Assembly (NCBI GenBank): GCA_017559185.1
Contig: JAFYSU010000034.1
Coordinates: forward strand, 90 to 64,089
DNA: 64,000 nt
Source: Oscillospiraceae bacterium
GTDB lineage: Bacteria; Bacillota; Clostridia; Oscillospirales; Ruminococcaceae
Direction: 5' to 3'
Below are positions 29,622 through 45,265 of the stretch, piece after piece. Each line of letters starts with the position of its first letter. Position 1 is the stretch's first letter. The notes below the pieces were generated by a model. It saw nothing but the letters and a program-made list of their open reading frames with translations, was not told the origin of the DNA and searched no databases. Position numbers and translations under genes: made by a program.

Positions 29622-29659
29622 AAAAAGCAGAGTTTTCGCTTGAAAACTCTGCTTTTTTA
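29622..29659. terminator. Bidirectional terminator (pck operon / wbp operon convergent)
   Basis: 12-bp stem agcagagttttc / gaaaactctgct, flanked by A- and T-runs. Confidence 0.85.
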
Positions 29660-29730: not shown

Positions 29731-30813
29731 TTAAAATTTATTTATAATATCCGCCACTTTAGCTATCTCATCATTCGTTATGTACGGATGTATAGGCAGC
29801 GACAGCACTGTTTGGCATAGAATTTCGGAATTAGGGCAATCTGCAAATTTTTCAAATTTTTTAAAAGCCTGCTGTTTACTTAAAGGTTTGGGATAGTAAA
29901 TCATTGTGGGAATACCCATCTTCGCAAGACTTTTTTGTACCATGTCACGCTTGCTTTTATTGTCAAAACGGATTGTATACTGAGCCCACGACGATTTAAA
30001 GTCTTGCGGTATTACAGGTATATTCCATTTTTCACACAGCTGCTTGCTGTAAAATTCTGCCGCCATACGCAGTGCAGCAAGCTCACTGTTTTTAAAAGCC
30101 TTAAACTTCACCTGAAGTATTGCTGCCTGTACAGTATCCAACCGTGAGTTTATGCCAACTCTCACATTTTCGTATTTATCTTTCCCTTTGCCATGGCATT
30201 TAAGCGAGCGCATAATATCTGCCTTTTGGGTATCGTTTGTAAAAACCGCACCTCCGTCTCCATAGCATCCAAGCGGTTTTGACGGAAAAAACGACACAGC
30301 TGCAGCATTTCCAAAACTGCCGTTTAATCTGCCGTTTATTTCTCCTCCAAACCCCTGTGCCGAATCTTGAAAAAGCAATAAATCATGTTTTTGTGCTATA
30401 ACGCTTAATTCAGGGTAATTTGCAGGCAACCCAAACATATCCACTGCAACAACCGCTTTTGCATTAAGCTTACCGCTGTTTTTTACCTTTTGTACGGCAT
30501 TTTCCAACGACTGCACGTCTACATTGAAGGTATCTTTTTGCACATCACAAAACACAGGTACGGCACCTGTTCTTGCAACTGCCTCGGCTGTTGCAAAAAA
30601 TGTAAAGTCGGGTACAAACACTGCGTCACCACTGCCTATCCCCCAAGCGGAAAGCATTAAAAAAATAGCATCTGTACCGTTTGCGCAGCTCACACAATGC
30701 TTTACCCCCACATACTCGGCAAGGCTTTTTTCAAGCTCTCCAACCTGTCTGCCGTCAATGCTTCGGCACTCATCCAACGCATTTAAAACAGCTTTGTTTA
30801 TCTCATTCTGCAA
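29731..30813 (-). CDS. DegT/DnrJ/EryC1/StrS-family PLP sugar aminotransferase (WbpE-like); N-terminus apparently frameshifted
   Basis: Colinear by eye with P. aeruginosa WbpE (CANGTDA, FFPSKPLGCYGDGGA, NSRLDTVQAAIL). Homology continues upstream of TTG 30813 to the wbpD-like stop, but the only ATG (30856) is out of frame. Confidence 0.8.
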   Translation of the reverse strand: MQNEINKAVLNALDECRSIDGRQVGELEKSLAEYVGVKHCVSCANGTDAIFLMLSAWGIGSGDAVFVPDFTFFATAEAVARTGAVPVFCDVQKDTFNVDVQSLENAVQKVKNSGKLNAKAVVAVDMFGLPANYPELSVIAQKHDLLLFQDSAQGFGGEINGRLNGSFGNAAAVSFFPSKPLGCYGDGGAVFTNDTQKADIMRSLKCHGKGKDKYENVRVGINSRLDTVQAAILQVKFKAFKNSELAALRMAAEFYSKQLCEKWNIPVIPQDFKSSWAQYTIRFDNKSKRDMVQKSLAKMGIPTMIYYPKPLSKQQAFKKFEKFADCPNSEILCQTVLSLPIHPYITNDEIAKVADIINKF

Positions 30814-30852
30814 TATGCTGTATTGCAGTTTTAAGCCTTTGAATTCCGTTTT

Positions 30853-31422
30853 TCATCCCTCCGTCTGTTTTATTCCGGTCCCACAGCTAACATATTTTTT
30901 ACCGCAAACGGTACATTCAAGGTTTTCATCCAACTTTGCTCCGCAACAGCAAACCCACCCCGTTAATACGGCAGGCACGCCAACAGCAAGTGCATGGTCA
31001 GGTACATCTTTGGTTACTACCGCACCTGCTGCAATCATTGCCCAACTGCCAATAGTACAGCCACAAACTATTACCGCATTGGCACCGATAGAAGCTCCAT
31101 TTTTCACCAGTGTTGGAATACGTTCTTTCTTTGGGAAAGGAGCTCTTGGAGTTAAATCATTGGTAAACACACAAGACGGGCCGCAAAACACATTGTCTTG
31201 TAAAATTACCCCGCCATATACCGATACATTATTTTGAATTTTAACCCCATTACCAACCTCTGCACCGTTTCCAATGTAAACATTCTGCCCTATAACACAG
31301 TTTTCACCTACTTTTGCCCCCGTTTGTATATGCGAAAAATGCCATATTTTTGTTCCTTGTCCTACATATGCTCCATCATCAATAACTGCTGTTGCATGAT
31401 GATAATAATCAGGCTTTTCCAA
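30853..31422 (-). CDS. Left-handed beta-helix (hexapeptide) N-acetyltransferase (WbpD-like)
   Basis: Hexapeptide repeats (IGQNVYIGNGAEVGNGVKIQNNVSV). Start re-set to TTG 31422, 5 nt after GGAGGG, overlapping the upstream stop. Confidence 0.8.
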   Translation of the reverse strand: MEKPDYYHHATAVIDDGAYVGQGTKIWHFSHIQTGAKVGENCVIGQNVYIGNGAEVGNGVKIQNNVSVYGGVILQDNVFCGPSCVFTNDLTPRAPFPKKERIPTLVKNGASIGANAVIVCGCTIGSWAMIAAGAVVTKDVPDHALAVGVPAVLTGWVCCCGAKLDENLECTVCGKKYVSCGTGIKQTEG

Positions 31423-32482
31423 ACGAACCCTCCATTTCCCGCGTGGAAAAATCATCAAGAGGCAAAAAAACCTCCTGCCTTGTTTTGTGGCTTTTGTATA
31501 TGGCAAGTACCAGTTCAACTGCCTGTGCGGTTTGCGAAAGGTCAACAATTGAAGCTTCACCACTTTTTACAGCCGAAATAAATTCCCTGTACAGCTCGCT
31601 GTGACCGCTGCCATACACATTTTGGGGTGCAGTGTTCAAGATACTGATGTTTTTTTCAAACGGTTCGCCATTAACACGCCAAAGTTCCACCTTTTCAAGG
31701 GCATACCCCCCAAGGCACACTGTCCCTTTTTCACCAAATACGCAGAGCGTTTCCTCCAAATTTTCAGGGTACACATTCCCCGTACCCTCCACTATTCCCA
31801 ATGCTCCGTTTTCATAGCTTATTATTGCAGCCCCAACATCCTCCGCCTGTATGTACGGATGAAACCTGTTTTGTATAACACCTTTTACCGAAATCGGGCG
31901 ACAGTTCATCATGTAATTAAGCAGGTCTATTCCATGAATACATTGGTTCATAAGTATTCCGCCGTCTTGGTCCCATCTGCCTCTCCACGCTGCTTGTGAA
32001 TAGTAATCCTTGTCCCTGTACCATCGCACTTGCAGGGAGATGTGTGATATTTTACCCAAGCGGTTTTCCTGCAAAGCTTTTTTCAGTCTGCGCACAGGCG
32101 GGTTAAATCTGTTTTGATGACATACACCTATCCTTAATCCTGTATCACACTGAGCTTTTTTAAGCTGGGAAAGTTCTTTCATTGAAAGCGCGGCAGGTTT
32201 TTCCAATATAACGCTGCTTGAATTTTTCAAACATTCAACCGCAGCTTGTGCATGACCTCCGCTGGGTATTGCTATTGCAGTAATGTTGGGAGATACCTCT
32301 TGGAGCATAAGCCGATAATCCGTATAAACAGCTGTTTTGCCAGAAAGCCCGAATTCCTCCAAAAGCAAATTTGCCTTATCATCTGAAAGGTCACACACTG
32401 CCGCAGGTATTACACCGTTTTCCATTATTGCCTGAATGTGTTTCGGTGCTATTCGTCCGCAACCAATTAAAGCATACCTCAT
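31409..32482 (-). CDS. Gfo/Idh/MocA-family oxidoreductase (WbpB-like)
   Basis: N-terminal Rossmann motif MRYALIGCGRIAPKH. Length and position between the WbpA-like and WbpD-like genes. Confidence 0.8.
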   Translation of the reverse strand: MRYALIGCGRIAPKHIQAIMENGVIPAAVCDLSDDKANLLLEEFGLSGKTAVYTDYRLMLQEVSPNITAIAIPSGGHAQAAVECLKNSSSVILEKPAALSMKELSQLKKAQCDTGLRIGVCHQNRFNPPVRRLKKALQENRLGKISHISLQVRWYRDKDYYSQAAWRGRWDQDGGILMNQCIHGIDLLNYMMNCRPISVKGVIQNRFHPYIQAEDVGAAIISYENGALGIVEGTGNVYPENLEETLCVFGEKGTVCLGGYALEKVELWRVNGEPFEKNISILNTAPQNVYGSGHSELYREFISAVKSGEASIVDLSQTAQAVELVLAIYKSHKTRQEVFLPLDDFSTREMEGSFGKA

Positions 32483-32493
32483 ATCCCGTCACC

Positions 32494-33804
32494 TCACAGC
32501 ACTTCCACATTTTCGCGCTCTGTAATGCATTTAAGGGCATTTTTGCAGTCAAAAATGGCTCTGGCGTTTTTTGCGGCAAGGGAATAATCAACATTTGTAT
32601 GTGCTGTCGAAACTATTACTGCATCGTATTCTTTTATCATATCCGCAGTAAGCATTGGACGGCTGATTTTAATTTCTCCGTTCACCCGAACATTAGGAAC
32701 CCATGGATCGTAATATTCAACAGCTGCACCTTTTTTCTCCAACAGCTGCCATATTTTTAATGCGGGACTTTCCCTGTAATCCGAAACATCCTGCTTATAT
32801 GCAACTCCCAACAGCAGTATTTTTGAATTCTGTATGCTTTTTGTTTTTTGGTTAAGCATATCGGCAACACGGCTGACACAGTATTCCGGCATTTTGTCGT
32901 TCACAGTCATGGCACTCTCTATCATTGTTGTGTGAAAACCGTATTCCCGTGCCTTCCACGAAAGGTAGTAAGGGTCAAGCGGTATGCAGTGACCTCCTAT
33001 TCCCGGTCCGGGATAAAAGGCTTGAAAACCGTATGGCTTTGACTTTGCAGCTTCGATTACCTCCCACACATTTATCCCCATTTTGTGACAGAGCATTGCA
33101 AATTCATTTATAAGGCTTATATTCACATTACGGTATGTATTCTCCAAAAGTTTTTCCATTTCCGCTGCTGCCGGTGAGGAAAGCACTGCAACCTCTGCTT
33201 CAAGTACGGTTTTGTACATCTGTGCAATAACCTCGGCTGCGTCTTTGCCTATCGCACCAACCACACGCGGTGTGTTTTTTATTTTATAAATACGGTTGCC
33301 CGGGTCCACCCTTTCGGGAGAGTATCCCAAATAAAAATCTGTTCCGCATTTAAAACCATTCTGCTCCAACAAGGGTTTTACAAGCTCCTGTGTTGTGCCG
33401 GGATAGGTAGTGGACTCCAGTACAACCACTGTCCCCTTTTTCATGTACTTGGCTATCTGCTTTGCTGATGCTTCAATATAGCTTAAATCAGGCTGTTGGT
33501 GTTTATCCAAAGGCGTGGGTACACAAACTGCAATAAAATCCACTTGTGAAATTTGTGAAAAGTCATCGGTTGCACAAAGCATTCCGCTTTTCACCACTTC
33601 GGCAAGTTCTTGGGGTACAACATCTCCAATATAGTTTTCCGCACGATTTACCTGCCTTGTTTTATTTTTTTGCACATCAAATCCAATTGTTAAAAAACCT
33701 GCCTTTGCCTTTTCAACAGCTAACGGCAATCCAACATATCCCAGACCTATTATGCCTACTTTAAGTTTTCTTTCCTTTATTTTTTCAAGCAGTTTTTCCT
33801 TCAC
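32494..33804 (-). CDS. UDP-N-acetyl-hexosamine 6-dehydrogenase (WbpA/WecC-like nucleotide-sugar dehydrogenase)
   Basis: VGIIGLGYVGLPLA, GPGIGGHCIP (catalytic Cys). GTG start 8 nt after AAGGAGG. Confidence 0.85.
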   Translation of the reverse strand: MKEKLLEKIKERKLKVGIIGLGYVGLPLAVEKAKAGFLTIGFDVQKNKTRQVNRAENYIGDVVPQELAEVVKSGMLCATDDFSQISQVDFIAVCVPTPLDKHQQPDLSYIEASAKQIAKYMKKGTVVVLESTTYPGTTQELVKPLLEQNGFKCGTDFYLGYSPERVDPGNRIYKIKNTPRVVGAIGKDAAEVIAQMYKTVLEAEVAVLSSPAAAEMEKLLENTYRNVNISLINEFAMLCHKMGINVWEVIEAAKSKPYGFQAFYPGPGIGGHCIPLDPYYLSWKAREYGFHTTMIESAMTVNDKMPEYCVSRVADMLNQKTKSIQNSKILLLGVAYKQDVSDYRESPALKIWQLLEKKGAAVEYYDPWVPNVRVNGEIKISRPMLTADMIKEYDAVIVSTAHTNVDYSLAAKNARAIFDCKNALKCITERENVEVL

Positions 33805-33867: not shown

Positions 33868-33908
33868 CAAAAACACCGCAGTCCCAAAATGAACTGCGGT
33901 GTTTTTTG
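33868..33908 (-). terminator. Terminator about 150 nt downstream of the cotH-like stop
   Basis: Stem acaccgcagt / actgcggtgt, flanked by A- and T-runs. Confidence 0.7.
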
Positions 33909-34059
33909 ATGGAAAAGAAAGAAGAATAGTATTAATTTAGGAGTACTGCTGCCCTTTCGGGCAGTATGTTCAGCGAGTACATTTTTATTATACCAATATT
34001 GCGAAAAAATATCAGAACTTTAAATTAAGTCCGTGTAAACAAATTTTAAACATCCTGCA

Positions 34060-36066
34060 TTATCGGCGTTTAAACTTTGCTGCTGCAAATAGTCCTGCCC
34101 CCAGCAGTGCCAAGCTTCCTGCTAACAGGCACCATTGGTATACCTCTTCTTCGCTGTTGTTGGCATTTTCCGTTTGCATTTGATGATGTTTAAACTCTCT
34201 TGGAAATCCTTCGGGTGGATTTTCACCCCACTCACGCTGCATTTGCGGGAAACCTTCTGGCGGATTTTCACCCCACTCACGCTGCATTTGCGAAAAACCT
34301 TCTGGCGGATTTTCACCCCACTCACGCTGCATTTGCGGGAAACCTTCTGGTGGGTTTTCACCCCACTCACGCTGCATTTGCGGAAAACCTTCTGGCGGGT
34401 TTTCACCCTGCTCCTCGTTATCTTTAATGCCGCGTCTGCCGCCAAAGCCACCCATGTGATTGCCCATTGCTGCTATGTCAACCTCGTCTGCATTTATAAG
34501 TGCCGAAGAATCCGCCTTTTGTGCTTCATCGGTCGATGGTATGCTGCCATCCAGTTGTCCCTTTACACTTTCGGCTCTAAGCAAACAAAGCTTCTTCAAA
34601 ACAGGTGCCGCTTTTTCAAATTCTTCATATGTGCAAAAAGCAGTAGGGTCTTTTTTCACATACGGTGCAATTAAGCTGTAAGTATTATCAAAAGTTTCTT
34701 CAAATTGTCCGCTGTTAAAATAGCTTTCAATCCAGCTCAGATAAATTTCGTGATACTTTTTCGTGTATTCTTCATTACTGAATATCCACGAAAGCATGGG
34801 AAGATTTTCAACATTGTTTGCAGGTGTGTCGATGGCATCGTTCACAAGTGCAGACGCATCTCCGCCGCCCATACCTCCAAACGCAAGGTTGTAGTCCCAA
34901 CCAATCATCGAAAGCTTGCCTTCATGCTCGTGCACATAATAGTTATGAACTATCATTCCTGTATAGCTGTCGTTGTTCAGTACAAATGTATGTGCTGCAA
35001 AGTAACGCATTACCTCGTCAATTTCAAGCACTTGTTCAAGGTCTTTTTGCTCACCAAGCTGTTTTAATGATGCAATAAGCCTTTCTTTGTCGGCTTTGCT
35101 TACATCAAATACCGCGTTGTCAAAAATGTTTGAATAGCTTTCGATGTTATCATCACTGTACTGTAAACGCACAGCGGTATTACCGCCCATGCCTTTGCCA
35201 AAGCCCGACCAATTCGGCATTCTTCTGTCTGCGTTTTGGTTATCAGCCGTTTTATTTTCGGTTTCCGATTGATTTTCAGGCTTATCATTCATTATCGGCA
35301 GTTCGCTTTGACTTTCAGGCGCAATACTTTCGGATTTTTTTATTTCCGCTGTTTGTTGATGGTTAAAGCCCTCGCCATTTTTACGATTTTTCCATTGTTT
35401 TGCAAAGTCTTCGAAATTATTTTTTCCGTTTCCGCCGCCCATGTTCATACTTTCAGGCTTGTAGATACTGCCGTAGTCAGAACCGAAATTCCGCTGTGCA
35501 AATCCATCTTCAATTCCTTCAACGGCAAGGTAAAGTCCCCAATCCTCACCGTTGAGCGTTACCCAAACATAGCTTGCAAGCGGAGCATATGCACCCGCCT
35601 GGCGCAGCATATCAAGACAAATATAATCCTTCATGCAGGTTTTATCCTGTATCAAATTGTTAAGTGCCAGTTTATCCAAACCGTAATATGTGGTATTCTT
35701 ATCATAATGATCGAATTCCACCTTAAAGCTGTACCTGTCCGAGTCGGATGAGGACACCTGCCGCAGCGAAGAGTTACCCTTTGGTCTAATGGCAACATTA
35801 TGGTACGCTTCGCCGTCTATTACAACATCACAGGTTATGTATTCTTCGCTTCGTGCGTTGTCCAGCATGTTTTGCCAGTCATCTTTATTGGCAACTATAT
35901 CTATGGTATGAACCTTGTCGGTTGTAAAAAGCTTTTGCGTGTACGGCAAAACTGTATCTGCTCTTACAATTCCGAATTTTTCGCCATTTACAAACAGCAG
36001 CGTTATAACCAGTGTAAGCAGTGTTATGATACCGCAAACAACACCGATATGTCTGCTTGTAGACAT
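34060..36066 (-). CDS. cotH: CotH kinase-family protein, membrane anchored at both termini, with C-terminal 15-aa tandem repeats
   Basis: CotH-type blocks (RYSFKVEFDHYDK, LDKLALNN, GLYLAVEGIED, NYYVHE). N-terminal TM VVCGIITLLTLVITLLFV. C-terminal TM plus KFKRR. 4.5 copies of GENPPEGFPQMQREW. Confidence 0.8.
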   Translation of the reverse strand: MSTSRHIGVVCGIITLLTLVITLLFVNGEKFGIVRADTVLPYTQKLFTTDKVHTIDIVANKDDWQNMLDNARSEEYITCDVVIDGEAYHNVAIRPKGNSSLRQVSSSDSDRYSFKVEFDHYDKNTTYYGLDKLALNNLIQDKTCMKDYICLDMLRQAGAYAPLASYVWVTLNGEDWGLYLAVEGIEDGFAQRNFGSDYGSIYKPESMNMGGGNGKNNFEDFAKQWKNRKNGEGFNHQQTAEIKKSESIAPESQSELPIMNDKPENQSETENKTADNQNADRRMPNWSGFGKGMGGNTAVRLQYSDDNIESYSNIFDNAVFDVSKADKERLIASLKQLGEQKDLEQVLEIDEVMRYFAAHTFVLNNDSYTGMIVHNYYVHEHEGKLSMIGWDYNLAFGGMGGGDASALVNDAIDTPANNVENLPMLSWIFSNEEYTKKYHEIYLSWIESYFNSGQFEETFDNTYSLIAPYVKKDPTAFCTYEEFEKAAPVLKKLCLLRAESVKGQLDGSIPSTDEAQKADSSALINADEVDIAAMGNHMGGFGGRRGIKDNEEQGENPPEGFPQMQREWGENPPEGFPQMQREWGENPPEGFSQMQREWGENPPEGFPQMQREWGENPPEGFPREFKHHQMQTENANNSEEEVYQWCLLAGSLALLGAGLFAAAKFKRR
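34208..34410 (-). repeat. 45-bp in-frame tandem repeat, about 4.5 copies, inside the cotH-like gene
   Basis: Plus-strand unit ccttctggcggattttcaccccactcacgctgcatttgcgggaaa recurs at 34208, 34253, 34298 and 34343, with a partial copy at 34388. Only 1-4 substitutions per copy. Encodes GENPPEGFPQMQREW. Confidence 0.95.
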
Positions 36067-36079
36067 TTTTGCTGCCCCC

Positions 36080-36751
36080 TTAGCTCATGTAATCGCCATT
36101 ATAGCTTACAAGCACCGCACTTTGAATTCCATCCATTTCGGCCAGCTTGTTCACAAAGTCAGTGTTATCGTTTTTCAAACGAAGCTCGTAGTTAACCTCA
36201 ACACCTGCGCGTGTAACAGTTTTGCTTTTAATAACGCAGCGTTCACAAACGCTTTCCAAGCATGCTTTTGCTGCTTTTTCAGCATCGTGTCCGTCACAGC
36301 GAATTACTGCTATGTACGGCTGAACATAGCTTTTGCGGTTGCTGAAAACCAGCAGCACCACACCAATAACCAAGCTGCCGAATACAGCAAGTGTAATAAG
36401 CCCCGCAGCCAAAACTATACCTGCTGCCAATGCCCAAAACAGAAAAACTATATCCATTGGGTCTTTTATTGCTGCTCGGAAACGGACAATGGACAATGCA
36501 CCCACCATACCAAGCGAAAGCACCACATTGCTTGTTACCGCCAGTATTACCAGTGTGGTTATCATTGTAAGTGCTATGAGCGATGTTCCAAAACTTGCGG
36601 AATAAAGCACACCGTTGTATGTTTTCTTATAAATGAAAAAGATAAATGTTCCCAAGCCAAACGCAAGCAGCAGCGCAAGAACCATATCGAACATAGATAC
36701 ACTTGTTATATTCTCCAGAAAGTTAGATTTAAATATGTCTTGAAAAGTCAT
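36080..36751 (-). CDS. DUF4956 domain-containing membrane protein
   Basis: About 4 TM helices with the conserved SIVRFRAAIKDPMDIVFLFWA block, plus a soluble C-terminal domain. GGAGGA upstream of the start. Confidence 0.7.
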   Translation of the reverse strand: MTFQDIFKSNFLENITSVSMFDMVLALLLAFGLGTFIFFIYKKTYNGVLYSASFGTSLIALTMITTLVILAVTSNVVLSLGMVGALSIVRFRAAIKDPMDIVFLFWALAAGIVLAAGLITLAVFGSLVIGVVLLVFSNRKSYVQPYIAVIRCDGHDAEKAAKACLESVCERCVIKSKTVTRAGVEVNYELRLKNDNTDFVNKLAEMDGIQSAVLVSYNGDYMS

Positions 36752-36768
36752 TTTTTGTCCTCCTTATA

Positions 36769-37449
36769 TTAACCGTACTTACGGCATATTGCGTATTTTG
36801 AAAATGCCGCAGCTCTGCGGCTGTCCAGCTGTATTATATCTTTTATTAGTGCGGGTAAAAAGTTATCGTACTTTACCTCCATTAAATATGCGTTTTCCGA
36901 TGTCGGAAGTGTAATCCCTTCATCGGTCAGCCAGTTACCCCGTGCATTACCTGTGCGTATTTCTCGGTCAAGTGTTACACGCACATTGCCTGCATCAAAC
37001 ACAAACGGCTCTCGTATATAATCCACAAGCACTTTGGGTTCAAGTCGCTGACATTTCAGCTTTACATAAAACTCCCGCACAAGCTCGTTTTCGTGGTTTA
37101 TCATCCAATCCCATTCACCTGCCGTTACCGCCAATGCTTGTTCAGCGGTAAGTTTTGCAGACTGCTTATTTCCCAACCCGTTAACCTTTGTTTTTTTCTC
37201 CAGCTTTATGTGAGATGAATCATTGTTATACAAGCGAATTCTGAATTTTTCGCGTATGGCTGTACCGTTTAGTTTATCCAGAAGTGCCTTGTCCTCGGGT
37301 GTATCAAAATACAAACTTCTTATTTTATATTCACCGTTTTTGTCGGCATTTGGGTCTTTATGCAGAACAGCTCGCAGCCGTTGGCGCACCGTAAGGTAGT
37401 CGGCATAATTCAACGGGTATTTCAGTTCGTGTCTGAATTGCACCGTCAT
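36769..37449 (-). CDS. VTC-domain (polyphosphate polymerase / triphosphate-tunnel type) protein
   Basis: N-terminal FRHELKY strand followed by alternating charged beta-strand pattern (YKIRSLYFDT, REKFRIRLY, IKLEKKTK, LMEVKYD). Start ATG 37449; GTG 37443 is also possible. Confidence 0.7.
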   Translation of the reverse strand: MTVQFRHELKYPLNYADYLTVRQRLRAVLHKDPNADKNGEYKIRSLYFDTPEDKALLDKLNGTAIREKFRIRLYNNDSSHIKLEKKTKVNGLGNKQSAKLTAEQALAVTAGEWDWMINHENELVREFYVKLKCQRLEPKVLVDYIREPFVFDAGNVRVTLDREIRTGNARGNWLTDEGITLPTSENAYLMEVKYDNFLPALIKDIIQLDSRRAAAFSKYAICRKYG

Positions 37450-37611
37450 CTGCTCCTTTCCTTTTAGCTTAACATTACAGCTTGCATTGTACTGCTGCAA
37501 CCTTGAAAGTTCATTGAACACTCATGCTTCAATATTACTTCAATCCAAAGCATTATAATTAAATCCACAATATATAAAAATAAAGTACAAAATACAGGGA
37601 GGATATATTTC

Positions 37612-38292
37612 GTGAAATTACTGCTTGTAGAGGACGAACTTGCACTTGCCGAAGCCTTGTGCAGTGTTTTTTCAAAAGAAAACTACATAACCGACCATTG
37701 CGACAACGGAACCGACGGCTTAAACAATGCTCTTACAGGCATTTATGATGCCGTTGTATTGGATGTAATGCTTCCTGGAATGAACGGATTTGAAATTCTG
37801 CGTGAAATGCGAAAAAACAAAATTTCTACTCCCGTTATAATGCTCACGGCAAAATCACAGCTTGAAGACAAGATATACGGTTTGGACAGTGGAGCCGACG
37901 ATTACCTTACCAAACCCTTTGAAACTGGGGAGCTGCTTGCAAGAATACGCGCTGCCACCCGCCGAAAAGGCGAAGTAACCTCCAACACTTTAAGCTTTGG
38001 CGACCTTGAGCTTCGACAAAAATCAGGGGAGATTTTCTGCACTGCTACCACACAGGCTGTGCGTCTTGGCAGCAAAGAATTCCAATTACTTGAGTTTTTA
38101 ATGAAAAACCAAAAGCAAATAGTAACAAAGGAACAGCTTATTGAACGCGTATGGGGCTACAATGATGAATCGGAATACAACAATGTTGAGGTTTACATTT
38201 CCTTTGTTCGCAAAAAGCTTACCTTTGTTGGTTCAACCGTAAAAATCAAAGCTGTACGCGGTATGGGATATTCATTGGAGGAAAGCGTATGA
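37612..38292 (+). CDS. OmpR-family response regulator
   Basis: Receiver domain (LLVEDE, VVLDVMLPGMNG, LTAK) plus winged-helix output (VYISFVRKKL, RGMGY). GTG start after GGGAGG. Confidence 0.9.
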   Translation: MKLLLVEDELALAEALCSVFSKENYITDHCDNGTDGLNNALTGIYDAVVLDVMLPGMNGFEILREMRKNKISTPVIMLTAKSQLEDKIYGLDSGADDYLTKPFETGELLARIRAATRRKGEVTSNTLSFGDLELRQKSGEIFCTATTQAVRLGSKEFQLLEFLMKNQKQIVTKEQLIERVWGYNDESEYNNVEVYISFVRKKLTFVGSTVKIKAVRGMGYSLEESV

Positions 38293-39539
38293 TAGAAAAT
38301 TTAAATCGAAAAATAATTGCCACTCTGATGTGTATTTTGAGTATTGTTTTTATAGGCATAGTAGGCAGTATAAACATCGTAAGTTATCATACCAATCAAC
38401 AGCGCGTTATGGGGTTTTTGCATGTTATTGCCCAAAATGACGGCAAGCGTCCCCAAAACAGCTTTCGCTTACGCATGAACAACCGCCCTTCCACCCCTGC
38501 AAAGTCTGCACCAAACACCCCACCACAAAAAAACGATGCTATATTCGGCCTTTCTACATTTGGTTCGGTTAAATTTGACAAGGACGGAAATGCAATTCAG
38601 GTTTTTCAGGATAAGGAGGGTTTTTACACTAAAGACGAAATAGTCGAATTAGCCAAAAACGCCTTGAACTCCGGCAAGCGTTCCGGAATAGCCGACCACC
38701 AAATGTTCCTTGTTCAGCAGCGACAAAACAGCGACCTTGTGGTGTTTGCCGACAATCACTTTGCCGAAGATGCTGCTGCACAGCTATTTATAAGCTCCTG
38801 CATTTTAACCTTAATCGGACTTATAATAATGTTCTGCATTTCAATAATGATTTCCAACTGGTTGGTCGCACCTGTAAGCAAAGCATTTGAACTTCAAAAG
38901 CAGTTTATTTCCGACGCAAGTCATGAGCTTAAAACACCGCTTTCGGTAATAACCACAAATGCCGAGGTTTTGGAAAGTGAAATTGGCGAAAACAAATGGC
39001 TTTCTTACATTCAATCGGAAGCACTGCGAATGAATACGCTGCTTGGAGAATTGCTCGCACTTGCCCGTTTGGATTCCAACGGTGTGCAAAATGTTTTTTC
39101 GGAATTTGATTTGAGTAAAGCGGTGGAAGGCTCTGCACTGCCTTTTGAAAGTACGGCTTTCGAATCCGGTCGTACCTTTAATTCAAACATTTCCGAAGGC
39201 ATTACCTTTAACGGAAATCAAGATAAAATTAAACAGCTCACAGCTATATTGCTTGACAACGCATTTAAATACAGCCCTGTAAACGGTGAAATATCCGTTT
39301 GTCTTACACAGATATCGGGAAAAAACATCTTAACGGTTTCCAACACCGGTGACCCTATACCCGAAGAAGAACGCAAACATATTTTTGACCGTTTTTACCG
39401 CACCGACAAAGCACGCTCGCGTGCTAACGGCAGTTACGGCTTGGGCCTTGCAATAGCTAAGTCAATAGTTACCGCACATGGCGGAAAAATATTCGTAGAT
39501 TGTGCCGACGGAAAGGTAATCTTCACCGTAGTGCTGTAA
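38289..39539 (+). CDS. Sensor histidine kinase
   Basis: Two TM helices flank an extracytoplasmic loop of about 150 aa. H-box FISDASHELKTPL. N, G1 and G2 boxes (LLDNAFKY, DRFYRTD, GLGLAIAK). ATGA overlap with the response regulator gene. Confidence 0.9.
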   Translation: MIENLNRKIIATLMCILSIVFIGIVGSINIVSYHTNQQRVMGFLHVIAQNDGKRPQNSFRLRMNNRPSTPAKSAPNTPPQKNDAIFGLSTFGSVKFDKDGNAIQVFQDKEGFYTKDEIVELAKNALNSGKRSGIADHQMFLVQQRQNSDLVVFADNHFAEDAAAQLFISSCILTLIGLIIMFCISIMISNWLVAPVSKAFELQKQFISDASHELKTPLSVITTNAEVLESEIGENKWLSYIQSEALRMNTLLGELLALARLDSNGVQNVFSEFDLSKAVEGSALPFESTAFESGRTFNSNISEGITFNGNQDKIKQLTAILLDNAFKYSPVNGEISVCLTQISGKNILTVSNTGDPIPEEERKHIFDRFYRTDKARSRANGSYGLGLAIAKSIVTAHGGKIFVDCADGKVIFTVVL

Positions 39540-39572
39540 AAAAAGCGGCTGTTTCACAACAGCCGCTTTTTA
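39540..39572 (+). terminator. Terminator directly after the histidine kinase gene and before TraX
   Basis: Stem agcggctgt / acagccgct followed by TTTTT. Confidence 0.75.
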
Positions 39573-39598
39573 AAAATTCTGCAAGGGAGGAAGCGCAT

Positions 39599-40270
39599 AT
39601 TAACGGACAGCAACTAAAGACACTCGCAGCTTTTTTCATGCTTCTTGACCATATTGCCGTAATCATAATATTTTCTCTTTTGGGAAGCAGTCCTTGGCTT
39701 CTGCCTGTTTTCACGCTTCTTCGCACCGTGGGAAGATTGTCGTTCCCGATATTTTGTTTTTTACTTAGTGAGGGGTTTCGTCATACCAAAAGCCGTAAGC
39801 GTTATTTTTTGCGGCTTGCTTGCTTTGCAGTAATCTCCGAAATACCTTTCAATCTTGCCTATGCAGGTACTGTTTACTGCTCCGACAAGCAAAATATATT
39901 TTTTACACTTGCTGCCGCACTTGTTACACTGTGTGCATTTGAGCGCTTTAAAAATAGCTTACCTTTAAAAATCGCAGCGACAGCCGCAGGTTGTGCCGTT
40001 TCACTGCTGCTTAACACCGATTATGCCGTAACGGGAATTATAATACCGTTAATGTTTTATATTTCAAGCAATAACGCCGACCGCCTATTCCTTGCCGGCA
40101 GTGTCGCCTTTTTTGACTCACTCCAATTTTATGGAGCTGGAATACTTTCCTTAATTCCCATAAGCTTTTACAATCAAAAGCGAGGCAATGGCAGTTCTTT
40201 ATTTTTCTACCTTTTTTATCCGCTTCACTTTATTGCCTTGTTATTTATAAAGCATATAATGAGCATATAA
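39599..40270 (+). CDS. TraX family membrane protein
   Basis: Conserved LKTLAAFFMLLDH N-terminal helix. The only SD-supported in-frame initiator is ATT 39599, 8 nt after GGGAGG. ATG 39638 would remove the conserved segment. Confidence 0.65.
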   Translation: MNGQQLKTLAAFFMLLDHIAVIIIFSLLGSSPWLLPVFTLLRTVGRLSFPIFCFLLSEGFRHTKSRKRYFLRLACFAVISEIPFNLAYAGTVYCSDKQNIFFTLAAALVTLCAFERFKNSLPLKIAATAAGCAVSLLLNTDYAVTGIIIPLMFYISSNNADRLFLAGSVAFFDSLQFYGAGILSLIPISFYNQKRGNGSSLFFYLFYPLHFIALLFIKHIMSI

Positions 40271-40307
40271 AAAGCACTCTGTTATGTTAAAACAGAGTGC
40301 TTTTTTG
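40269..40307. terminator. Bidirectional terminator (TraX / TRIC-like convergent)
   Basis: Stem agcactctgtt / aacagagtgct, flanked by A- and T-runs. Confidence 0.85.
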
Positions 40308-41158: not shown

Positions 41159-42118
41159 TTACTGAAGACCTGCAATATATTCTGCAGTAACATCTGTTGT
41201 TTCTGCAGCAATAACATCCATTGCATCAATAACTACCTGTGGTTCTGCTTCTACGATAGTTGCAACATCACCGTCGCCCATGTCAACAGTCAAAGTACCG
41301 TCGCCATTATCGGTAGTTGTGAAGTTAATCTGCAAACCGGATTCGTCATCTGTAAGAGATTCAATTCCTGCTGCTTCATCGTATACATAGTTACCAATAA
41401 CGGAAATGCTCTGTGTGCAGTCAGCAGACAACATAAACATTGCACCACGGGTAGCAGTTTCGTCAACTGCGAAGAAAACAGTTGTTTCGCCATCAGGCAT
41501 TACACCCTGATAGCAGGACCAGCCTGTCAGGTCAACAGCAGTTTCTTCAGCAGGTACAGCTTCTTCAGCGGCAGGAACTTCAAGACCCTGTGCTTCGTAC
41601 AGGGAAGCTATGTACTGTTCTGTTACATCCTCAGTTCCTTCTGCAATAACATCCATTGCATCCAAAACTTCCTGAGTATCGGAAAGCACTATTGTTGCGG
41701 AGTCACCGTCTGCAAAGGAAATTTCAATGGTGCCGTCTTCGTTTTCCTGATGTGTATAGTACATGGTCAAGCCTTTGTCAGCATCTGCAATGTACTCATA
41801 ACCCAGTTCTTCATCAATGCCGTTTTCACCAAATACGGAAATGCTCTTGGTTGCATCAGCCGAAACAATTACCAAACCACCGGCGGTAGAATCTTCGTTA
41901 AATACATAGAACAGTGTTGTTTCGCCGTCAGCCATAACACCTTGGAAAGCTGTCCAGTTTGTAATGTCAATTTCCTCTTCGGCAGGAGCAGCTTCTTCAA
42001 CAACCTCTTCAGCAGCAGGAGCACTTGTTTCTTCAGCTGGTGCATCTCCACCACCGCAAGCAGCAAAGCTGAATGTCATTGCAGCAGCCATAAGGATAGC
42101 TAAAATTTTCTTTTTCAT
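41159..42118 (-). CDS. Hypothetical acidic lipoprotein with an internal tandem domain duplication
   Basis: Lipobox MKKKILAILMAAAMTFSFAAC. Two domains of about 125 aa are clearly alignable (ITNWTAFQGVMADGETTLFYVF... / LTGWSCYQGVMPDGETTVFFAV...). Confidence 0.7.
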   Translation of the reverse strand: MKKKILAILMAAAMTFSFAACGGGDAPAEETSAPAAEEVVEEAAPAEEEIDITNWTAFQGVMADGETTLFYVFNEDSTAGGLVIVSADATKSISVFGENGIDEELGYEYIADADKGLTMYYTHQENEDGTIEISFADGDSATIVLSDTQEVLDAMDVIAEGTEDVTEQYIASLYEAQGLEVPAAEEAVPAEETAVDLTGWSCYQGVMPDGETTVFFAVDETATRGAMFMLSADCTQSISVIGNYVYDEAAGIESLTDDESGLQINFTTTDNGDGTLTVDMGDGDVATIVEAEPQVVIDAMDVIAAETTDVTAEYIAGLQ

Positions 42119-42159
42119 TTTCCACTCTTCCTTTCAACTTAAGTTCTGTATATTTTTAA

Positions 42160-42186
42160 AACAGAGGGGTAAACATTTGACCCCAT
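42160..42186 (-). terminator. Candidate terminator after the helical lipoprotein gene
   Basis: Minus strand GGGGT..ACCCC stem followed by TCTGTTTT. Confidence 0.45.
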
Positions 42187-42193
42187 AGTGCCA

Positions 42194-42685
42194 TTAGTAC
42201 TGAACTTCCAAGCCATGTTCAGCAGCCAAAGTTTCCAAAGCAGCATTGTATTCATCCAACAAAACAACGCCTTCGTCAATCTTTGCAACAGCTTCGTTTA
42301 CGGTAGCTTCATCCCCTGTACTGCAAGCTTCAAGCAGCTTTTCATAACCTTCCTTGTATGCAAGCAAAACTTTTTCGTATTTTGCTTTTACAGCCTTCAC
42401 TTCTTCTGTTTGCAGTTCAATTTTAGAAAGCATATCCAATGATTCATTAATGATAGGGAGTATGCTGTTTTCTATGCAATGTGCTATTTCTTCATCGCTT
42501 GTCAAATTTGCCGATTCTTCAACCGCTGTCTTCAGTTCTTCATAATTTGTGTTTACCGCTGCCATATCGGTATTAAGGAATTTTTCAAATTCTTCTGCAA
42601 CAGGGTCTCCTGCACAGCCTGTAAGAACAGTGAATACCATAACAACAGTAAACAAAATCGCCATGAATTTTTTAATGGATTTCAT
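42194..42685 (-). CDS. Hypothetical helical lipoprotein
   Basis: Lipobox VFTVLTGC. GGAGG 9 nt upstream of the start. Glu/Lys/Ala-rich, predicted all-helical. No family recognised. Confidence 0.65.
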   Translation of the reverse strand: MKSIKKFMAILFTVVMVFTVLTGCAGDPVAEEFEKFLNTDMAAVNTNYEELKTAVEESANLTSDEEIAHCIENSILPIINESLDMLSKIELQTEEVKAVKAKYEKVLLAYKEGYEKLLEACSTGDEATVNEAVAKIDEGVVLLDEYNAALETLAAEHGLEVQY

Positions 42686-42782
42686 TTTAAAAAACCTCCT
42701 TCATTAACCTAAACTTTTTTGGAGCACATATGTTTGATATACCGGTTCATATGTCAAACATCCCTTTTTTAGGTATTGGGAT

Positions 42783-44432
42783 TTATCTTGAACCGCCTCC
42801 GCGGCCACCACCGGAAAATCCGCCGCCGCCGCCATGCGAAGCACGACCGCCACGACCTTCGGAGCGTTTTTTCTGGATAGCTCGCTGTGCTGAACCGTAC
42901 ATACTGCTGCGATAACGGTAGGATGCCATAACATTTCGTTCATATCTGTCAATCTCGGCAACTTTTTCAGGATAAACCTTTTTGAATTGTTCCATAACCT
43001 TATCAGCAATACCCAAAAGGGCTGCATATATCATGTAATCCTGCCAAATTACCGTTTCGCTTATCTCTCTTTCGGAAATAAGTGAAAATTCATCAAGATA
43101 TTTTTTAAGTCCGACAACCTGCGCCAATTCGCTTTTGCCTTTTTCGTTCAAGTCCTTAATGCAGTTGCCTGCACCGTTTGCAAAACCGCCTTTGGCTGCG
43201 AATTCGGTTTCACCGTCTTCTTTTACTTTACTTATAAAGCTTGTAATTACTTCGGGATTTGCATAGGAATAGTTTTCAAGCTCTTTTTCCTGCAAAATGC
43301 CGTCATCACCTGCGGATATCTTTAAAATATCGTAAAGTTGTTTTTGCAGAATATTTTTCGGCTCTTTAATTATCTTAAGACTAACATTCTGTTTGCTTCG
43401 TCCCAAGAATCCTGTTTCTTCCTCGACAACAGCCTCCAGTACACCATCGTTTATCATTGAAATTATGAGTGCACCAATTATAAGGCTTTCCTCGTCAGCT
43501 GCATCAAAATTCTGTGATAAGTAGTATGTAACCGCCATACTGCCGTCGTTTGGAACATCACGGAAATATGGTGCTGCTTTAAAGAATTTTTTAATGGCTA
43601 TCTTTCGTTTTATGTACCAAACAGCAGTCCATATCATTACTGCAATAATACCAAAAAATACTATAATGCCTACTATGCTGACATCGTCGTCATCGTAGTC
43701 ACTGCCTTCGAAAGCTCTGTCTTTTACTTCATCAAACGAACAATCTTCTTCATATGCAGGGGACACAATGCCTTTATCAAGTCGGAGCATGAGTATCATG
43801 GAATCTTCACCGCTCAAAGCAGTATTTGAATAGGCAACTACACAGCCCTCATAAAACTCTACCATGCCGTCGAAGCCAAAGCCCCATATTGCAGTGTTTT
43901 CTTCCGAAAGATATGTTCCGTCGTTCATTACCACCACTGCGGTTACATCGGTTGGGAATGTGGACATACCCGGATTTACAAGCATGAAGTTTGTACCGTC
44001 ATAATCCGAGTAGCTTTTTATAAAGTCCTCAACAACATACTCGATTGCGTAAACATTTTCACCATATTCCGATATACCAAAGCAAAGCTCCACACCGTCA
44101 TATGTTTCATTTATTCCGCATTTTCTTGACTTTTCTTCAAAGCTTGCATCAACATCCCAGTAATCAACAAATTCATATTCGCCGTATTGGTCAGAAACTT
44201 TAAGCTGTGAAACAGCTATATCTTGTGTTGAGATTGGAATGTAGTTTTCGGTTCCTTCGTGAAATGTTCCGCGCCATGTTTGAACAATATAGGCACTTCC
44301 GTCGTTTTGCAAAACAACTTCGATGTCCATTTCAGAAACATTGTTTTGTGCCGAAGCCAACACTGCCCCTGCCGTTAAACATAACGCCGCCGTCACGGAA
44401 AAAAACAGTTTTCTAAAAATGTTCAATGCCAT
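42783..44432 (-). CDS. DUF2207 domain-containing membrane protein
   Basis: Signal peptide, DUF2207-type N-terminal beta domain (IEVVLQNDGSAYIVQTW...YIPIS), central TM helices and a Gly-rich tail GGRASHGGGGGFSGGGRGGGSR. Lies 4 nt after the lemA stop. Confidence 0.75.
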   Translation of the reverse strand: MALNIFRKLFFSVTAALCLTAGAVLASAQNNVSEMDIEVVLQNDGSAYIVQTWRGTFHEGTENYIPISTQDIAVSQLKVSDQYGEYEFVDYWDVDASFEEKSRKCGINETYDGVELCFGISEYGENVYAIEYVVEDFIKSYSDYDGTNFMLVNPGMSTFPTDVTAVVVMNDGTYLSEENTAIWGFGFDGMVEFYEGCVVAYSNTALSGEDSMILMLRLDKGIVSPAYEEDCSFDEVKDRAFEGSDYDDDDVSIVGIIVFFGIIAVMIWTAVWYIKRKIAIKKFFKAAPYFRDVPNDGSMAVTYYLSQNFDAADEESLIIGALIISMINDGVLEAVVEEETGFLGRSKQNVSLKIIKEPKNILQKQLYDILKISAGDDGILQEKELENYSYANPEVITSFISKVKEDGETEFAAKGGFANGAGNCIKDLNEKGKSELAQVVGLKKYLDEFSLISEREISETVIWQDYMIYAALLGIADKVMEQFKKVYPEKVAEIDRYERNVMASYRYRSSMYGSAQRAIQKKRSEGRGGRASHGGGGGFSGGGRGGGSR

Positions 44433-44436
44433 CTCC

Positions 44437-44976
44437 TCATTTCATGCTTGGCATATCTGCTTTACTTTCATTTGTTTCAAGATAATCGCGGCTTCTGATG
44501 TTGAGTACACCTGCCACTATTGATGTAGGGAACATACGAATTTCACGATTAAGCTTGGTAACGCTGTCATTGTAAATCAAACGAGACTGACGAACCATTT
44601 TTTCGTATTCGTTTACGCTGTCCATGGTTTTAATGTAGTTTTCGTTTGATTTAAGTTCCGGATAGCTTTCGGCAACTGCCATAATTTTGCCCATGGCTTC
44701 TGTCAGCATATTTTCCTGTTTGTTAACATCGGCAGCAGTGCTTCTTACATTTATGCTTGAACGCATTTTAATTGTATCGGTAATTGTTTTGTATTCATGC
44801 TCATCATAGCCTTTTGTCAAATCCAAAAGTGCTGTAAGAGCATCCCATCTGGAAGACAGCTGCACACCAATCTGACTCATGGCGTTGTTTACATTTTCAT
44901 CCATTGCTACAAGCTTTCTTTGCACGGAAACAAACCAAAATGCAACCACAGCCAAAATAATCAATAAAATCAACAT
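44437..44976 (-). CDS. lemA: LemA family protein
   Basis: N-terminal TM then LemA helical bundle (SRWDALTALLDL, ESYPELKSNENY, RLIYNDSVTKLNREIRMFP). Start re-set to ATG 44976 after GGAGG. Confidence 0.85.
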   Translation of the reverse strand: MLILLIILAVVAFWFVSVQRKLVAMDENVNNAMSQIGVQLSSRWDALTALLDLTKGYDEHEYKTITDTIKMRSSINVRSTAADVNKQENMLTEAMGKIMAVAESYPELKSNENYIKTMDSVNEYEKMVRQSRLIYNDSVTKLNREIRMFPTSIVAGVLNIRSRDYLETNESKADMPSMK

Positions 44977-45265
44977 TATTTTATACACCTCCAAAATTTT
45001 TAGCTTCATATATTGATAAAAGTTTATCACATATCGCTATTTTTTTCAATATAAGTAAAATATTTTTGTTGATACAGCACAGTATACATATATTACCATT
45101 TTTATCTCTTATCGCTTACTCTGTGCATAAATTAAACAAAATAGGAAGAACAAATGCCCTTCCGATAGTCTTTTATCATATTAAAAATTCTGCAAACTAT
45201 GCTATTCGTGTTTACTGCCTATATTACTATGCAAAGCCTGCATTTATTATGTTTTTATTCTTGCA

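Follow-up and report, generated by a model that had tools for sequence, protein, structure and literature searches.

An operon for VTC, DUF4956 and CotH proteins with a divergent two-component system: a candidate polyphosphate-linked envelope module in an Oscillospiraceae genome

The locus and its genes

A stretch of 64,000 nucleotides from an Oscillospiraceae bacterium (contig JAFYSU010000034.1; the whole stretch is called the window here) carries three closely spaced minus-strand genes for a VTC-domain protein, a DUF4956 protein and a CotH-family protein, and, divergent from these, genes for a response regulator (RR), a sensor histidine kinase (HK) and a TraX-family membrane protein (Table 1). 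A first-pass annotation of the DNA had described this arrangement, and it stands in all essentials. The list of open reading frames agrees on three tight genes, with intergenic gaps of 17 and 13 nucleotides (nt), and the VTC, DUF4956 and CotH assignments are borne out by Pfam profile matches (E = 1e-43, 5e-10 and 6e-56). Pfam agrees as well on the OmpR-type regulator and the kinase that had been placed about 160 bp away and on the TraX protein said to follow them, the start codons of the VTC and RR genes being 162 nt apart.

The VTC gene likely starts at the ATG at 37449 rather than at an upstream GTG at 37521, because the predicted promoter falls between the two; the regulator boxes at the promoters, described below, place the start at the ATG for their part. 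At the other end, the operon is closed by a GC-rich hairpin followed by a T-run that can be read directly from the sequence, in a region that folds better than shuffled versions of itself (z = -6.6). The automatic terminator scan had missed this element because of the length of its loop, and it was found by eye. Given so strong a terminator, the trio is taken as one transcription unit and the Wbp-like genes that lie beyond it as a separate one.

Table 1. Features of the module and of its divergent two-component operon, in window coordinates
Feature	Coordinates	Strand	Basis or description
VTC-domain protein, 226 residues	36769-37449	minus	PF09359, E=1.2e-43
DUF4956 protein, 223 residues	36080-36751	minus	PF16316, E=5e-10
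CotH-family protein, 668 residues	34060-36066	minus	PF08757, E=6e-56
OmpR/PhoB-family response regulator, 226 residues	37612-38292	plus	Pfam Response_reg and Trans_reg_C
Sensor histidine kinase, 416 residues	38289-39539	plus	Pfam HisKA and HATPase_c
TraX-family membrane protein	39500-40270	plus	Pfam PF05857, E=7e-42
CotH N-terminal membrane helix, residues 7-27	35986-36048	minus	Motif MSTxKxIxxxC...T.LF.NGEKLG
CotH C-terminal membrane helix, residues 643-663	34078-34140	minus	Clade consensus ilLGaSxLvLLxGLxFAfKFKR
45-nt tandem repeat in cotH, encoding the 15-residue stalk repeat GENPPEGFPQMQREW	34202-34408	minus	Tandem Repeats Finder: 4.6 copies, 93% matches, score 349
Intrinsic terminator closing the VTC-DUF4956-cotH operon	33869-33907	minus	AAAAAACACCGCAGT, 10-nt loop, ACTGCGGTGTTTTT
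Candidate RR box facing the VTC operon, TTCAATGAACTTTCAA	37503-37518	minus	At the -35 position of a TACAAT -10 element (37486-37491, minus)
Candidate RR box facing the RR-HK operon, TTCAATATTACTTCAA	37528-37543	plus	At the -35 position of a TATAAT -10 element (37554-37559, plus)

Conservation of the gene order

The case that these genes belong together is made by their neighbourhoods in other genomes, a comparison that the first-pass annotation had proposed as a check and that comes out in favour of the trio. One scan, which covered one genome per species and used an alignment of VTC proteins as query, gave at least 596 confirmed matches, 80 of which were listed for neighbourhood counts; another, of metagenomes, took divergent DUF4956 sequences as its own, independent anchor. 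In 78 of the 80 listed genome loci the gene directly after VTC is DUF4956, and VTC lies directly upstream of DUF4956 in all 61 metagenome loci with room for it, so that the two are essentially an obligate pair. Where at least 3 kb of sequence continues downstream in the genome loci (75 loci), the third gene encodes a CotH protein in 52 cases, a Cthe_2159-family protein in 20 and some other protein in 3, one of these last being a rearranged locus in which all three genes are still present; a CotH or Cthe_2159 partner is likewise found in 48 of 50 metagenome loci. In about a quarter of loci, then, CotH is replaced by a Cthe_2159 beta-helix protein. Across both scans the order VTC-DUF4956-outer protein recurs in about 150 independent loci, which is far beyond chance, and it is retained at loci whose DUF4956 proteins are 35-38% identical to that of the window. 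Unbiased clustering of all other neighbours in the 80 listed genome loci found nothing else conserved and no recurrent glycosyltransferase family; the module therefore consists of VTC, DUF4956 and the outer protein, and it is highly probable that the three form one functional unit.

Parts of this picture have been reported before. The cotH gene, a "polyphosphate polymerase" gene and a DUF4956 gene were recorded in streptococci, clostridia and bifidobacteria as accessory genes that adjoin pelDEADAFG (PMC7112168, Whitfield et al. 2020), the proteins of Streptococcus intermedius SIR_1592-1594 were modelled, with an MgtC-like plus ACT architecture seen in the DUF4956 protein (bioRxiv 10.1101/2024.04.20.589940), and the NELoc-2 locus of Clostridium perfringens carries the trio, its DUF4956 protein being annotated at that time as "tubulin/FtsZ" (PMC2879425). 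The first-pass annotation had held that no member of the bacterial trio has a demonstrated function; this agrees with the literature found, although as a cluster the trio had already been published (PMC7112168; bioRxiv 10.1101/2024.04.20.589940; PMC2879425). The trio is therefore known as a cluster without demonstrated function, and its stand-alone form under two-component regulation is new here, as are the obligate pairing of VTC with DUF4956, the Cthe_2159 alternative, the shared membrane helices, the residue conservation, the relation of DUF4956 to other families and the direct repeats. The S. intermedius preprint did not find the trio outside pel operons (bioRxiv 10.1101/2024.04.20.589940); contrary to that impression, the module lies mostly outside pel loci. 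It is also carried by plasmids: on Pseudobutyrivibrio plasmid pNP95 it stands among glycosyltransferase, acyltransferase and pyruvyl-transferase genes of an exopolysaccharide cluster, and on a Planococcus plasmid it has the NELoc-2 order and is followed by genes for a HEAT-repeat protein and a glycosyltransferase.

Variants of the cassette were seen at several loci. At L088 (8764-10455) an extra gene between DUF4956 and a CotH plus beta-helix fusion encodes a PF01663 phosphodiesterase/nucleotide pyrophosphatase that has no hydrophobic N-terminal segment, and in other divergent cassettes the same place is taken by a gene for a protein of 328-354 residues with no assigned family (L091, 1079-2065; L136, 8632-9696). 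Cassettes of the Cthe_2159 type in Atopobium-type genomes are accompanied by a conserved protein of 395-445 residues (L003, 8527-9864; L008; L010; L083, 4384-5571) that has no Pfam match and carries at its N-terminus a Cys preceded by a short hydrophobic stretch, a possible lipobox. Two cassettes in a single genome were found in the metagenome-assembled genomes (MAGs) CADAPH01 (L059 and L061) and JAZUJY01 (L056 and L058), and a CotH-type cassette with a two-component system can accompany a Cthe_2159-type cassette in one such genome (e.g., L059/L061). The presence of two cassettes per genome suggests that the CotH and Cthe_2159 types are complementary, not interchangeable.

The VTC protein

The VTC protein matches PF09359 with 149.8 bits (cutoff 23), its residues 5-223 covering positions 1-231 of the 235 in the model. 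It consists of the VTC domain alone, has no SPX domain and shows no hydrophobic segment by hydropathy, as expected of a cytoplasmic protein; it is about 58% identical to its Ruminococcus counterpart. A search of PDB sequences with the single protein returned no matches and a profile was required: the profile of bacterial VTC proteins reaches yeast Vtc4 with E = 5e-4. The AlphaFold2 (AF2) model (predicted local distance difference test score, pLDDT, 82; predicted template-modelling score, pTM, 0.80) finds as its best PDB folds 3G3R, 3G3Q, 5IIQ, 8I6V and 7YTJ, with E = 4e-13 to 1e-11 and template-modelling (TM) scores of about 0.7. Vtc4 (3G3R/3G3Q) leads with E = 4e-13 and TM 0.73, the inactive Vtc2/3 domains come next, and other tunnel enzymes are far behind (ygiF, 2e-8; CYTH, about 1e-6 with TM of about 0.5).

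In yeast Vtc4, cryo-electron microscopy showed that K200, R264, R266, K281, Y359, R361, S457 and K458 bind triphosphate and that E426 binds Mn2+, and K458 is replaced by Ile or Leu in the inactive Vtc2/3 (bioRxiv 10.1101/2023.01.27.525886). Profile alignment to 3G3Q sets R70, R72, K86, Y144 and R146 of the bacterial protein against Vtc4 R264, R266, K281, Y359 and R361. The bacterial motifs RHELK (with K10), EVKYD (E191) and FSKYA (S217, K218) follow in the Vtc4 order, and with similar spacing, K10 and R70 being 60 residues apart as compared with 64 in Vtc4, and E191 and S217 26 apart as compared with 31. Each of K10, R70, R72, K86, Y144, R146, E191, S217 and K218 is at least 97% conserved among 83 sequences. 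The Vtc4-like catalytic domain proposed in the first-pass annotation is thus upheld, both by Vtc4 as the best PDB fold and by this conservation of the candidate residues, and it appears probable, from sequence and model, that the VTC protein makes polyphosphate.

A separate observation concerns the VTC-domain protein Clo1313_1989 of C. thermocellum. Ethanol-adapted strains show weak signs of convergent mutation at this gene, the expression of which is cut by half by a mutation 14 bp upstream (PMC10503014, PMC7063780). A role in membrane or envelope stress is possibly hinted at by these mutations.

The DUF4956 protein

DUF4956 is the better conserved member of the pair, about 75% identical to a Ruminococcus albus protein as compared with about 58% for VTC, and its family comprises about 5,459 clusters at 50% identity. 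Where about four transmembrane helices had been counted at first, the AF2 model (pLDDT 86) has an N-terminal amphipathic helix and five membrane helices (residues 20-44, 52-72, 76-92, 98-115 and 119-137). Residues 145-216 form an ACT/ferredoxin-like domain of beta-alpha-beta-beta-alpha-beta order that resembles the ACT, NikR and S6 folds. The conserved core, SNxVLSLGMVGALSIVRFRxAIKDPxD, occupies residues 74-100 (invariant core SLGMVGALSIVRFR) and contains in R90, R92 and K96 a conserved basic patch on the predicted cytoplasmic face. From the distribution of charges the protein is predicted to be N-out/C-in, so that the ACT-like domain would face the cytoplasm together with the RFRxAIKDP segment.

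In Pfam the window protein matches DUF4956 only, and the NCBIfam MgtC/SapB model reaches 22.9 bits as compared with a cutoff of 214. Weak matches to Pfam MgtC (PF02308) recur nevertheless in 42 of 54 diverse DUF4956 members; being recurrent and below cutoffs, they indicate distant homology and not membership of the MgtC family. By profile comparison DUF4956 is not homologous to the yeast VTC channel and is MgtC-like instead. As an observation from another lineage, the Bacteroides thetaiotaomicron pair BT3498-BT3499, a DUF4956 gene and a DUF2490 gene, shares a row in a table of iron-responsive genes (PMC10434189).

The outer protein: CotH and Cthe_2159

The CotH protein of the window is built, in order, of an N-terminal membrane helix, a kinase-like ectodomain with a low-complexity insert at about residues 205-300, a repeat stalk, a C-terminal membrane helix and a KFKRR tail. 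By hydropathy the hydrophobic segments span residues 2-34 and 642-665, directly ahead of KFKRR. The stalk repeat sits between the CotH domain and the C-terminal helix, and orthologues have other low-complexity stalks in its stead. The N-terminal segment is too long and too conserved for an ordinary signal peptide, and its motif is found on all third-gene products of this clade, of the CotH and Cthe_2159 types alike. The C-terminal helix with its basic tail is present in 39 of 53 complete CotH-type proteins and in 15 of 21 of the Cthe_2159 type; no LPXTG motif and no match to an NCBIfam C-terminal sorting-signal model was found on the CotH tail. In distant lineages the C-terminal helix is absent and an N-terminal signal anchor or lipobox is always present.

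That CotH faces outward, as had been claimed from the sequence, remains the prediction. Positive charges at both termini imply, by the positive-inside rule, an N-in/C-in protein with its ectodomain outside, and all the CotH and Cthe_2159 partners that were examined begin with a signal sequence, a signal anchor or a lipobox. Since two unrelated ectodomains are borne on the same two helices, these helices would be expected to contact a constant membrane partner, which argues that they form a scaffold that docks, most simply, onto DUF4956.

The ectodomain aligns with Bacillus cereus CotH (PDB 5JD9) in two segments (phmmer, E = 1.8e-12). D366 (in NNDSY) and D391 (in WDYN) fall on the 5JD9 motifs that hold the counterparts of B. 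subtilis D228 and D251, of which D228 is catalytic and D251 metal-binding (PMC7821199), and both are at least 97% conserved among 54 orthologues. The alternative partner matches the solved Cthe_2159 beta-helix with E = 8e-25; Cthe_2159 itself has cellulose and polygalacturonate as ligands (PMC6712302). The CotH and Cthe_2159 families are linked in several ways: they alternate as third genes, they occur as fusions of CotH with a right-handed beta-helix, and they are adjacent at the founding locus. The outer component seems to deal with an extracellular, probably acidic polymer, and its predicted outward topology, together with reported hosts that do not sporulate, argues for a CotH substrate other than spore-coat proteins.

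The founding locus stands apart from the cassettes. There (L174, 3556-6861), Cthe_2159, 99% identical to the PDB 4PEU query segment, is encoded directly downstream of a 797-residue LTD/Fn3_assoc/CotH protein; neither VTC nor DUF4956 was found nearby, and membership of the cassette was rejected. The locus is nonetheless an independent link between the two families.

Two-component regulation

The HK has membrane segments at about residues 4-35 and 161-198, which flank an extracytoplasmic loop of about 125 residues. The nearest NCBIfam models are RppA, CopR and PhoB for the RR and PnpS, RppB, WalK and PhoR for the HK, all below cutoffs. Among 69 of the listed genome loci, 34 have an RR-HK pair no more than 1.5 kb upstream of VTC, divergent in 21 and co-directional in 13. 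The kinases adjacent to cassettes form a coherent group, about 400-415 residues long, with a median of about 180 bits as compared with about 62 bits for kinases that are not adjacent. Their sensor loops are about 14% identical, and with loops that diverge this fast the signal cannot be read from the sequence.

A direct repeat of the form TTCA[G/A]-N5-7-TTCA[G/A], with an 11-bp period, occurs in 18 of 22 divergent intergenic regions, usually once facing each gene and at the -35 position of a TATAAT-like element; random windows show this pattern in 5% of cases and shuffles in 1%. The box facing VTC was found at 16 of 21 divergent two-component loci, as compared with 6 of 46 loci scored as having no adjacent system, and at 3 of those 6 a two-component system lies one gene further upstream. 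The two boxes of Table 1 are the only exact TTCAA-N6-TTCAA matches in the 64 kb window. Boxes at both divergent promoters support direct activation of both operons by the regulator, and the one facing the RR-HK operon implies autoregulation. What had been put forward as a possibility, that the adjacent two-component system controls the operon, thus gains weight from direct repeats conserved at both promoters: the system very probably controls the module, with the boxes as candidate operators.

Other features of the window

The TraX gene overlaps the end of the HK gene and is the last of the RR-HK unit, which a terminator at 40269-40305 closes. Among the listed loci TraX adjoins the cassette in only two others (L006 and L057), too few for it to count as a core part of the module, which it probably is not.

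Downstream of cotH, four minus-strand genes (29731-33804) are of the WbpA/B/D/E type, encoding a UDP-sugar 6-dehydrogenase, a GFO/IDH/MocA oxidoreductase, a hexapeptide acetyltransferase and a DegT aminotransferase, a combination of enzymes that makes UDP-2,3-diacetamido-2,3-dideoxy-hexuronic acid. No glycosyltransferase lies near them, and a strong terminator at 29622-29657 closes the set. Wbp-like genes were not conserved beside the cassette in the 80 listed genome loci, nor did Pfam annotation of the predicted genes of the window reveal pel-type genes or another polysaccharide-synthase operon beside it. In the stretch from the cotH stop codon to the terminator (33908-34015, minus), a site resembling a promoter, with an extended -10 (34015-33987), precedes a GNRA-capped hairpin that matched no Rfam family; the element could have arisen by chance or could represent a leader or a small RNA ahead of the Wbp-like genes. 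An Rfam search of the intergenic region between cotH and the WbpA-like gene gave sub-threshold matches only, and the idea of a known riboswitch there was rejected, with no Rfam family at threshold and a plain terminator in its place.

On the far side, the minus-strand genes at 41159-45030 code for envelope proteins: at 41159-42118 a putative lipoprotein that is acidic and internally duplicated, at 42194-42685 another putative lipoprotein, and at 42783-45030 a membrane pair of DUF2207 and LemA. None of them shows conservation with the cassette. A protein of 1213 residues with an N-acetylmuramoyl-L-alanine amidase domain and Big_2 and Ig-like repeats is encoded at 60333-63974 (minus).

Proposed function and alternatives

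The findings can be drawn together in a working model. The phosphorylated OmpR-type regulator would bind the TTCAA-N6-TTCAA boxes and activate its own operon and VTC-DUF4956-cotH. The soluble, Vtc4-type VTC protein would then use ATP to polymerise polyphosphate on the inner side of the membrane, working with DUF4956, whose conserved basic patch R90/R92/K96 would lie on the cytoplasmic face. DUF4956, probably oligomeric, would pass the nascent chain or phosphoryl groups outside together with the two helices of the third protein. Outside, the tethered CotH ectodomain would have a surface polymer as its target, an acidic glycopolymer or a surface protein being most plausible, and in sister cassettes the Cthe_2159 beta-helix would stand in its place. 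The link to surface polymers is drawn from the occurrence of the trio inside pel operons, NELoc-2 and exopolysaccharide loci, and from glycan binding by Cthe_2159. We put the probability of such a self-contained envelope module, with its own two-component system and with polyphosphate made at the membrane and passed to an outer enzyme, at roughly 35%. As to its parts, we infer a physical complex of the three proteins; export of the polymer through DUF4956 is suggested tentatively from the sequences, it is doubtful that CotH uses the exported polyphosphate as its phosphoryl donor, and the substrate and donor of CotH are in general weakly inferred. A wider version is speculative and rather unlikely to hold in full: that the module is a third bacterial route to polyphosphate beside the polyphosphate kinases (PPKs) PPK1 and PPK2, with synthesis mechanically coupled to export as a Vtc4-like polymerase seated on an MgtC-like oligomer threads the chain outward, with CotH using polyphosphate instead of ATP to phosphorylate glycopolymers or proteins of the surface, and with Cthe_2159 binding or processing the same polyanionic material.

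A number of points weigh against synthesis coupled to export and an outer kinase. The preprint on S. intermedius suggests that polyphosphate may stay cytoplasmic (bioRxiv 10.1101/2024.04.20.589940). Among the 54 DUF4956 members no match to DUF202, the Vtc1 type, was found at E values of up to 1, and neither the DUF4956 profile against PDB sequences nor the model against PDB folds matched the membrane domain, the only matches being generic ferredoxin/ACT-like ones to the C-terminal domain. To our knowledge, characterised MgtC is a regulator that binds other membrane proteins and not a channel, and we know of no enzyme of the protein-kinase fold that uses polyphosphate. On the side of the polymerase, no functional experiment on a bacterial VTC-domain protein was found in the searchable literature. 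K10, E191, S217 and K218 are set opposite Vtc4 K200, E426, S457 and K458 by motif order and spacing, since profiles of the N- or C-terminal VTC segments alone did not reach Vtc4, and these four equivalences stay at that level. The first strand keeps a conserved Glu (E8 in RHExK), a feature that resembles hydrolytic CYTH enzymes. Fusions of VTC with DUF4956 and of DUF4956 with CotH were considered as evidence of a functional link and rejected, as they pair truncated domains and are most likely metagenome chimeras. Lastly, the first-pass annotation took CotH as the outer component, and replacement of CotH by the Cthe_2159 beta-helix in about a quarter of them weakens a model in which the kinase is essential; where a non-kinase can take its place, a phosphoryl donor for the kinase cannot be the whole rationale of the module.

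The main rival explanation, which is less likely than not by a good way although the strongest of its kind, takes up several of these points. According to it, polyphosphate stays cytoplasmic and the MgtC-like DUF4956 anchors or regulates, tethering the polymerase while its ACT-like domain relays cytoplasmic phosphate, energy or ligand status, either to the outer enzyme's two-helix scaffold or to a polysaccharide synthase nearby; CotH or Cthe_2159 would then use another donor outside, or have a binding or lyase role. It agrees with the MgtC-like architecture and ACT-like domain of DUF4956, and the exchange of CotH for a non-kinase beta-helix fits a regulatory link better than it fits the supply of a donor. 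MgtC itself binds F1Fo ATP synthase and PhoR and has no part in transport (summarised in bioRxiv 10.1101/2024.04.20.589940), and cytoplasmic polyphosphate was proposed in the same preprint. What it leaves unexplained is why a polymerase is present in every cassette (139 of 141 loci) and why the pairing mirrors the yeast tunnel domain on its membrane domain; moreover, no transmembrane signalling domain is evident, and bacteria generally make cytoplasmic polyphosphate with PPK enzymes (PMC10657179). It is more unlikely still that the VTC protein is a tunnel hydrolase or cyclase whose substrate is triphosphate, ATP or some related compound, with DUF4956 as a transporter of a small solute (phosphate, pyrophosphate, Mg2+/Mn2+ or nucleotide) that serves the outer enzyme. 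The conserved Glu of RHExK would suit such an enzyme, the tunnel superfamily consists mostly of hydrolases and cyclases, which appear here as the weaker fold matches, and MgtC-family genes were historically tied to Mg2+ transport loci (bioRxiv 10.1101/2024.04.20.589940). Yet Vtc4 and Vtc2/3 are clearly the best matches by sequence and by fold, and conservation extends to the basic residues lining the tunnel of Vtc4 and to the SK pair whose Lys is the proposed discriminator of active Vtc4. As for a spore-coat kinase of the Bacillus type with unrelated neighbours that adjoin it by chance, the membership of the CotH family, the retained catalytic aspartates and a host in the Clostridia would all accord with it. 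The order of three genes in about 150 loci, including Atopobium-type genomes, does not, nor does the trio in non-sporulating streptococci and bifidobacteria (PMC7112168); the signal anchor and C-terminal membrane helix are unlike the soluble, 362-residue Bacillus protein, and the operon promoter is sigma-70-like and, by its candidate boxes, regulated by the two-component system. Synteny and topology together effectively refute it, and its probability is very low indeed.

Should the module make and export polyphosphate, this would bear on how bacteria place polyphosphate outside the cell, on the phosphoryl donor of an outward kinase and on the roles of the pel accessory genes; the wider version, if true, would be the first case in bacteria of a supply line that brings energy to extracytoplasmic phosphorylation. 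The VTC-DUF4956 pair is widespread, with at least 596 matches in a collection of one genome per species, though reviews treat VTC as eukaryotic, and the review of polyphosphate evolution surveys the VTC domain across eukaryotes only and gives PPK1/PPK2 as the bacterial enzymes (PMC10657179). Hosts of the cassette include gut and rumen commensals, and it lies in streptococcal pel biofilm operons and in the necrotic-enteritis locus of C. perfringens. These questions are made testable by the conserved residues, a defined candidate operator, the two-helix scaffold and the natural CotH and Cthe_2159 variants.

Comparison with known systems

The closest point of comparison is the yeast VTC complex, in which the catalytic subunit alone is insufficient for polyphosphate in vivo and the tunnel opens directly onto the channel (bioRxiv 10.1101/2023.01.27.525886; PMC9911596). 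The catalytic domains are homologous by family and fold, with the candidate triphosphate- and metal-binding residues conserved, and in both cases the polymerase is obligately paired with an integral membrane protein, the proposed compartment of the product being across the membrane from the cytoplasm. The yeast domain is fused to membrane helices, whereas the VTC protein of the window is separate and soluble; the yeast membrane part is the three-helix Vtc1/DUF202, whereas the partner here is an unrelated, five-helix, MgtC-like protein; and the SPX domain and inositol-pyrophosphate control of the yeast complex are absent from the window cassette, which has a two-component system and an ACT-like domain. 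The outward CotH or beta-helix protein has no counterpart in yeast VTC.

With the pel accessory cluster and NELoc-2 the module shares the same three contiguous families and a CotH that is secreted or exposed at the surface. The pel accessory cluster adjoins pel, whereas the cassette of the window is without pel, has the order VTC-DUF4956-cotH and a divergent two-component system, and anchors its CotH at both ends. Bacillus CotH (5JD9/5JDA) belongs to the same Pfam family and both catalytic aspartates are kept, but it is a soluble protein of 362 residues of the mother cell and spore coat that uses ATP and phosphorylates the Ser-rich CotB and CotG, in contrast to the membrane-tethered, predicted outward protein of the window with its large insert and repeat stalk. 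To MgtC/SapB/YhiD, DUF4956 is related by its architecture, five hydrophobic helices ahead of an ACT-like domain in the cytoplasm, and by weak but recurrent profile similarity; it differs in its own invariant core and its obligate VTC partner, MgtC being a regulator of F1Fo ATP synthase and PhoR and not part of a polymer synthase. Cellulose synthase BcsA-BcsB, finally, couples polymerisation at the cytoplasmic face to translocation, and its outer partner is anchored through a C-terminal membrane helix packed against the synthase. The likeness to the window cassette is one of analogy only, with no homology, and the polymer here would be inorganic polyphosphate and not a glycan.

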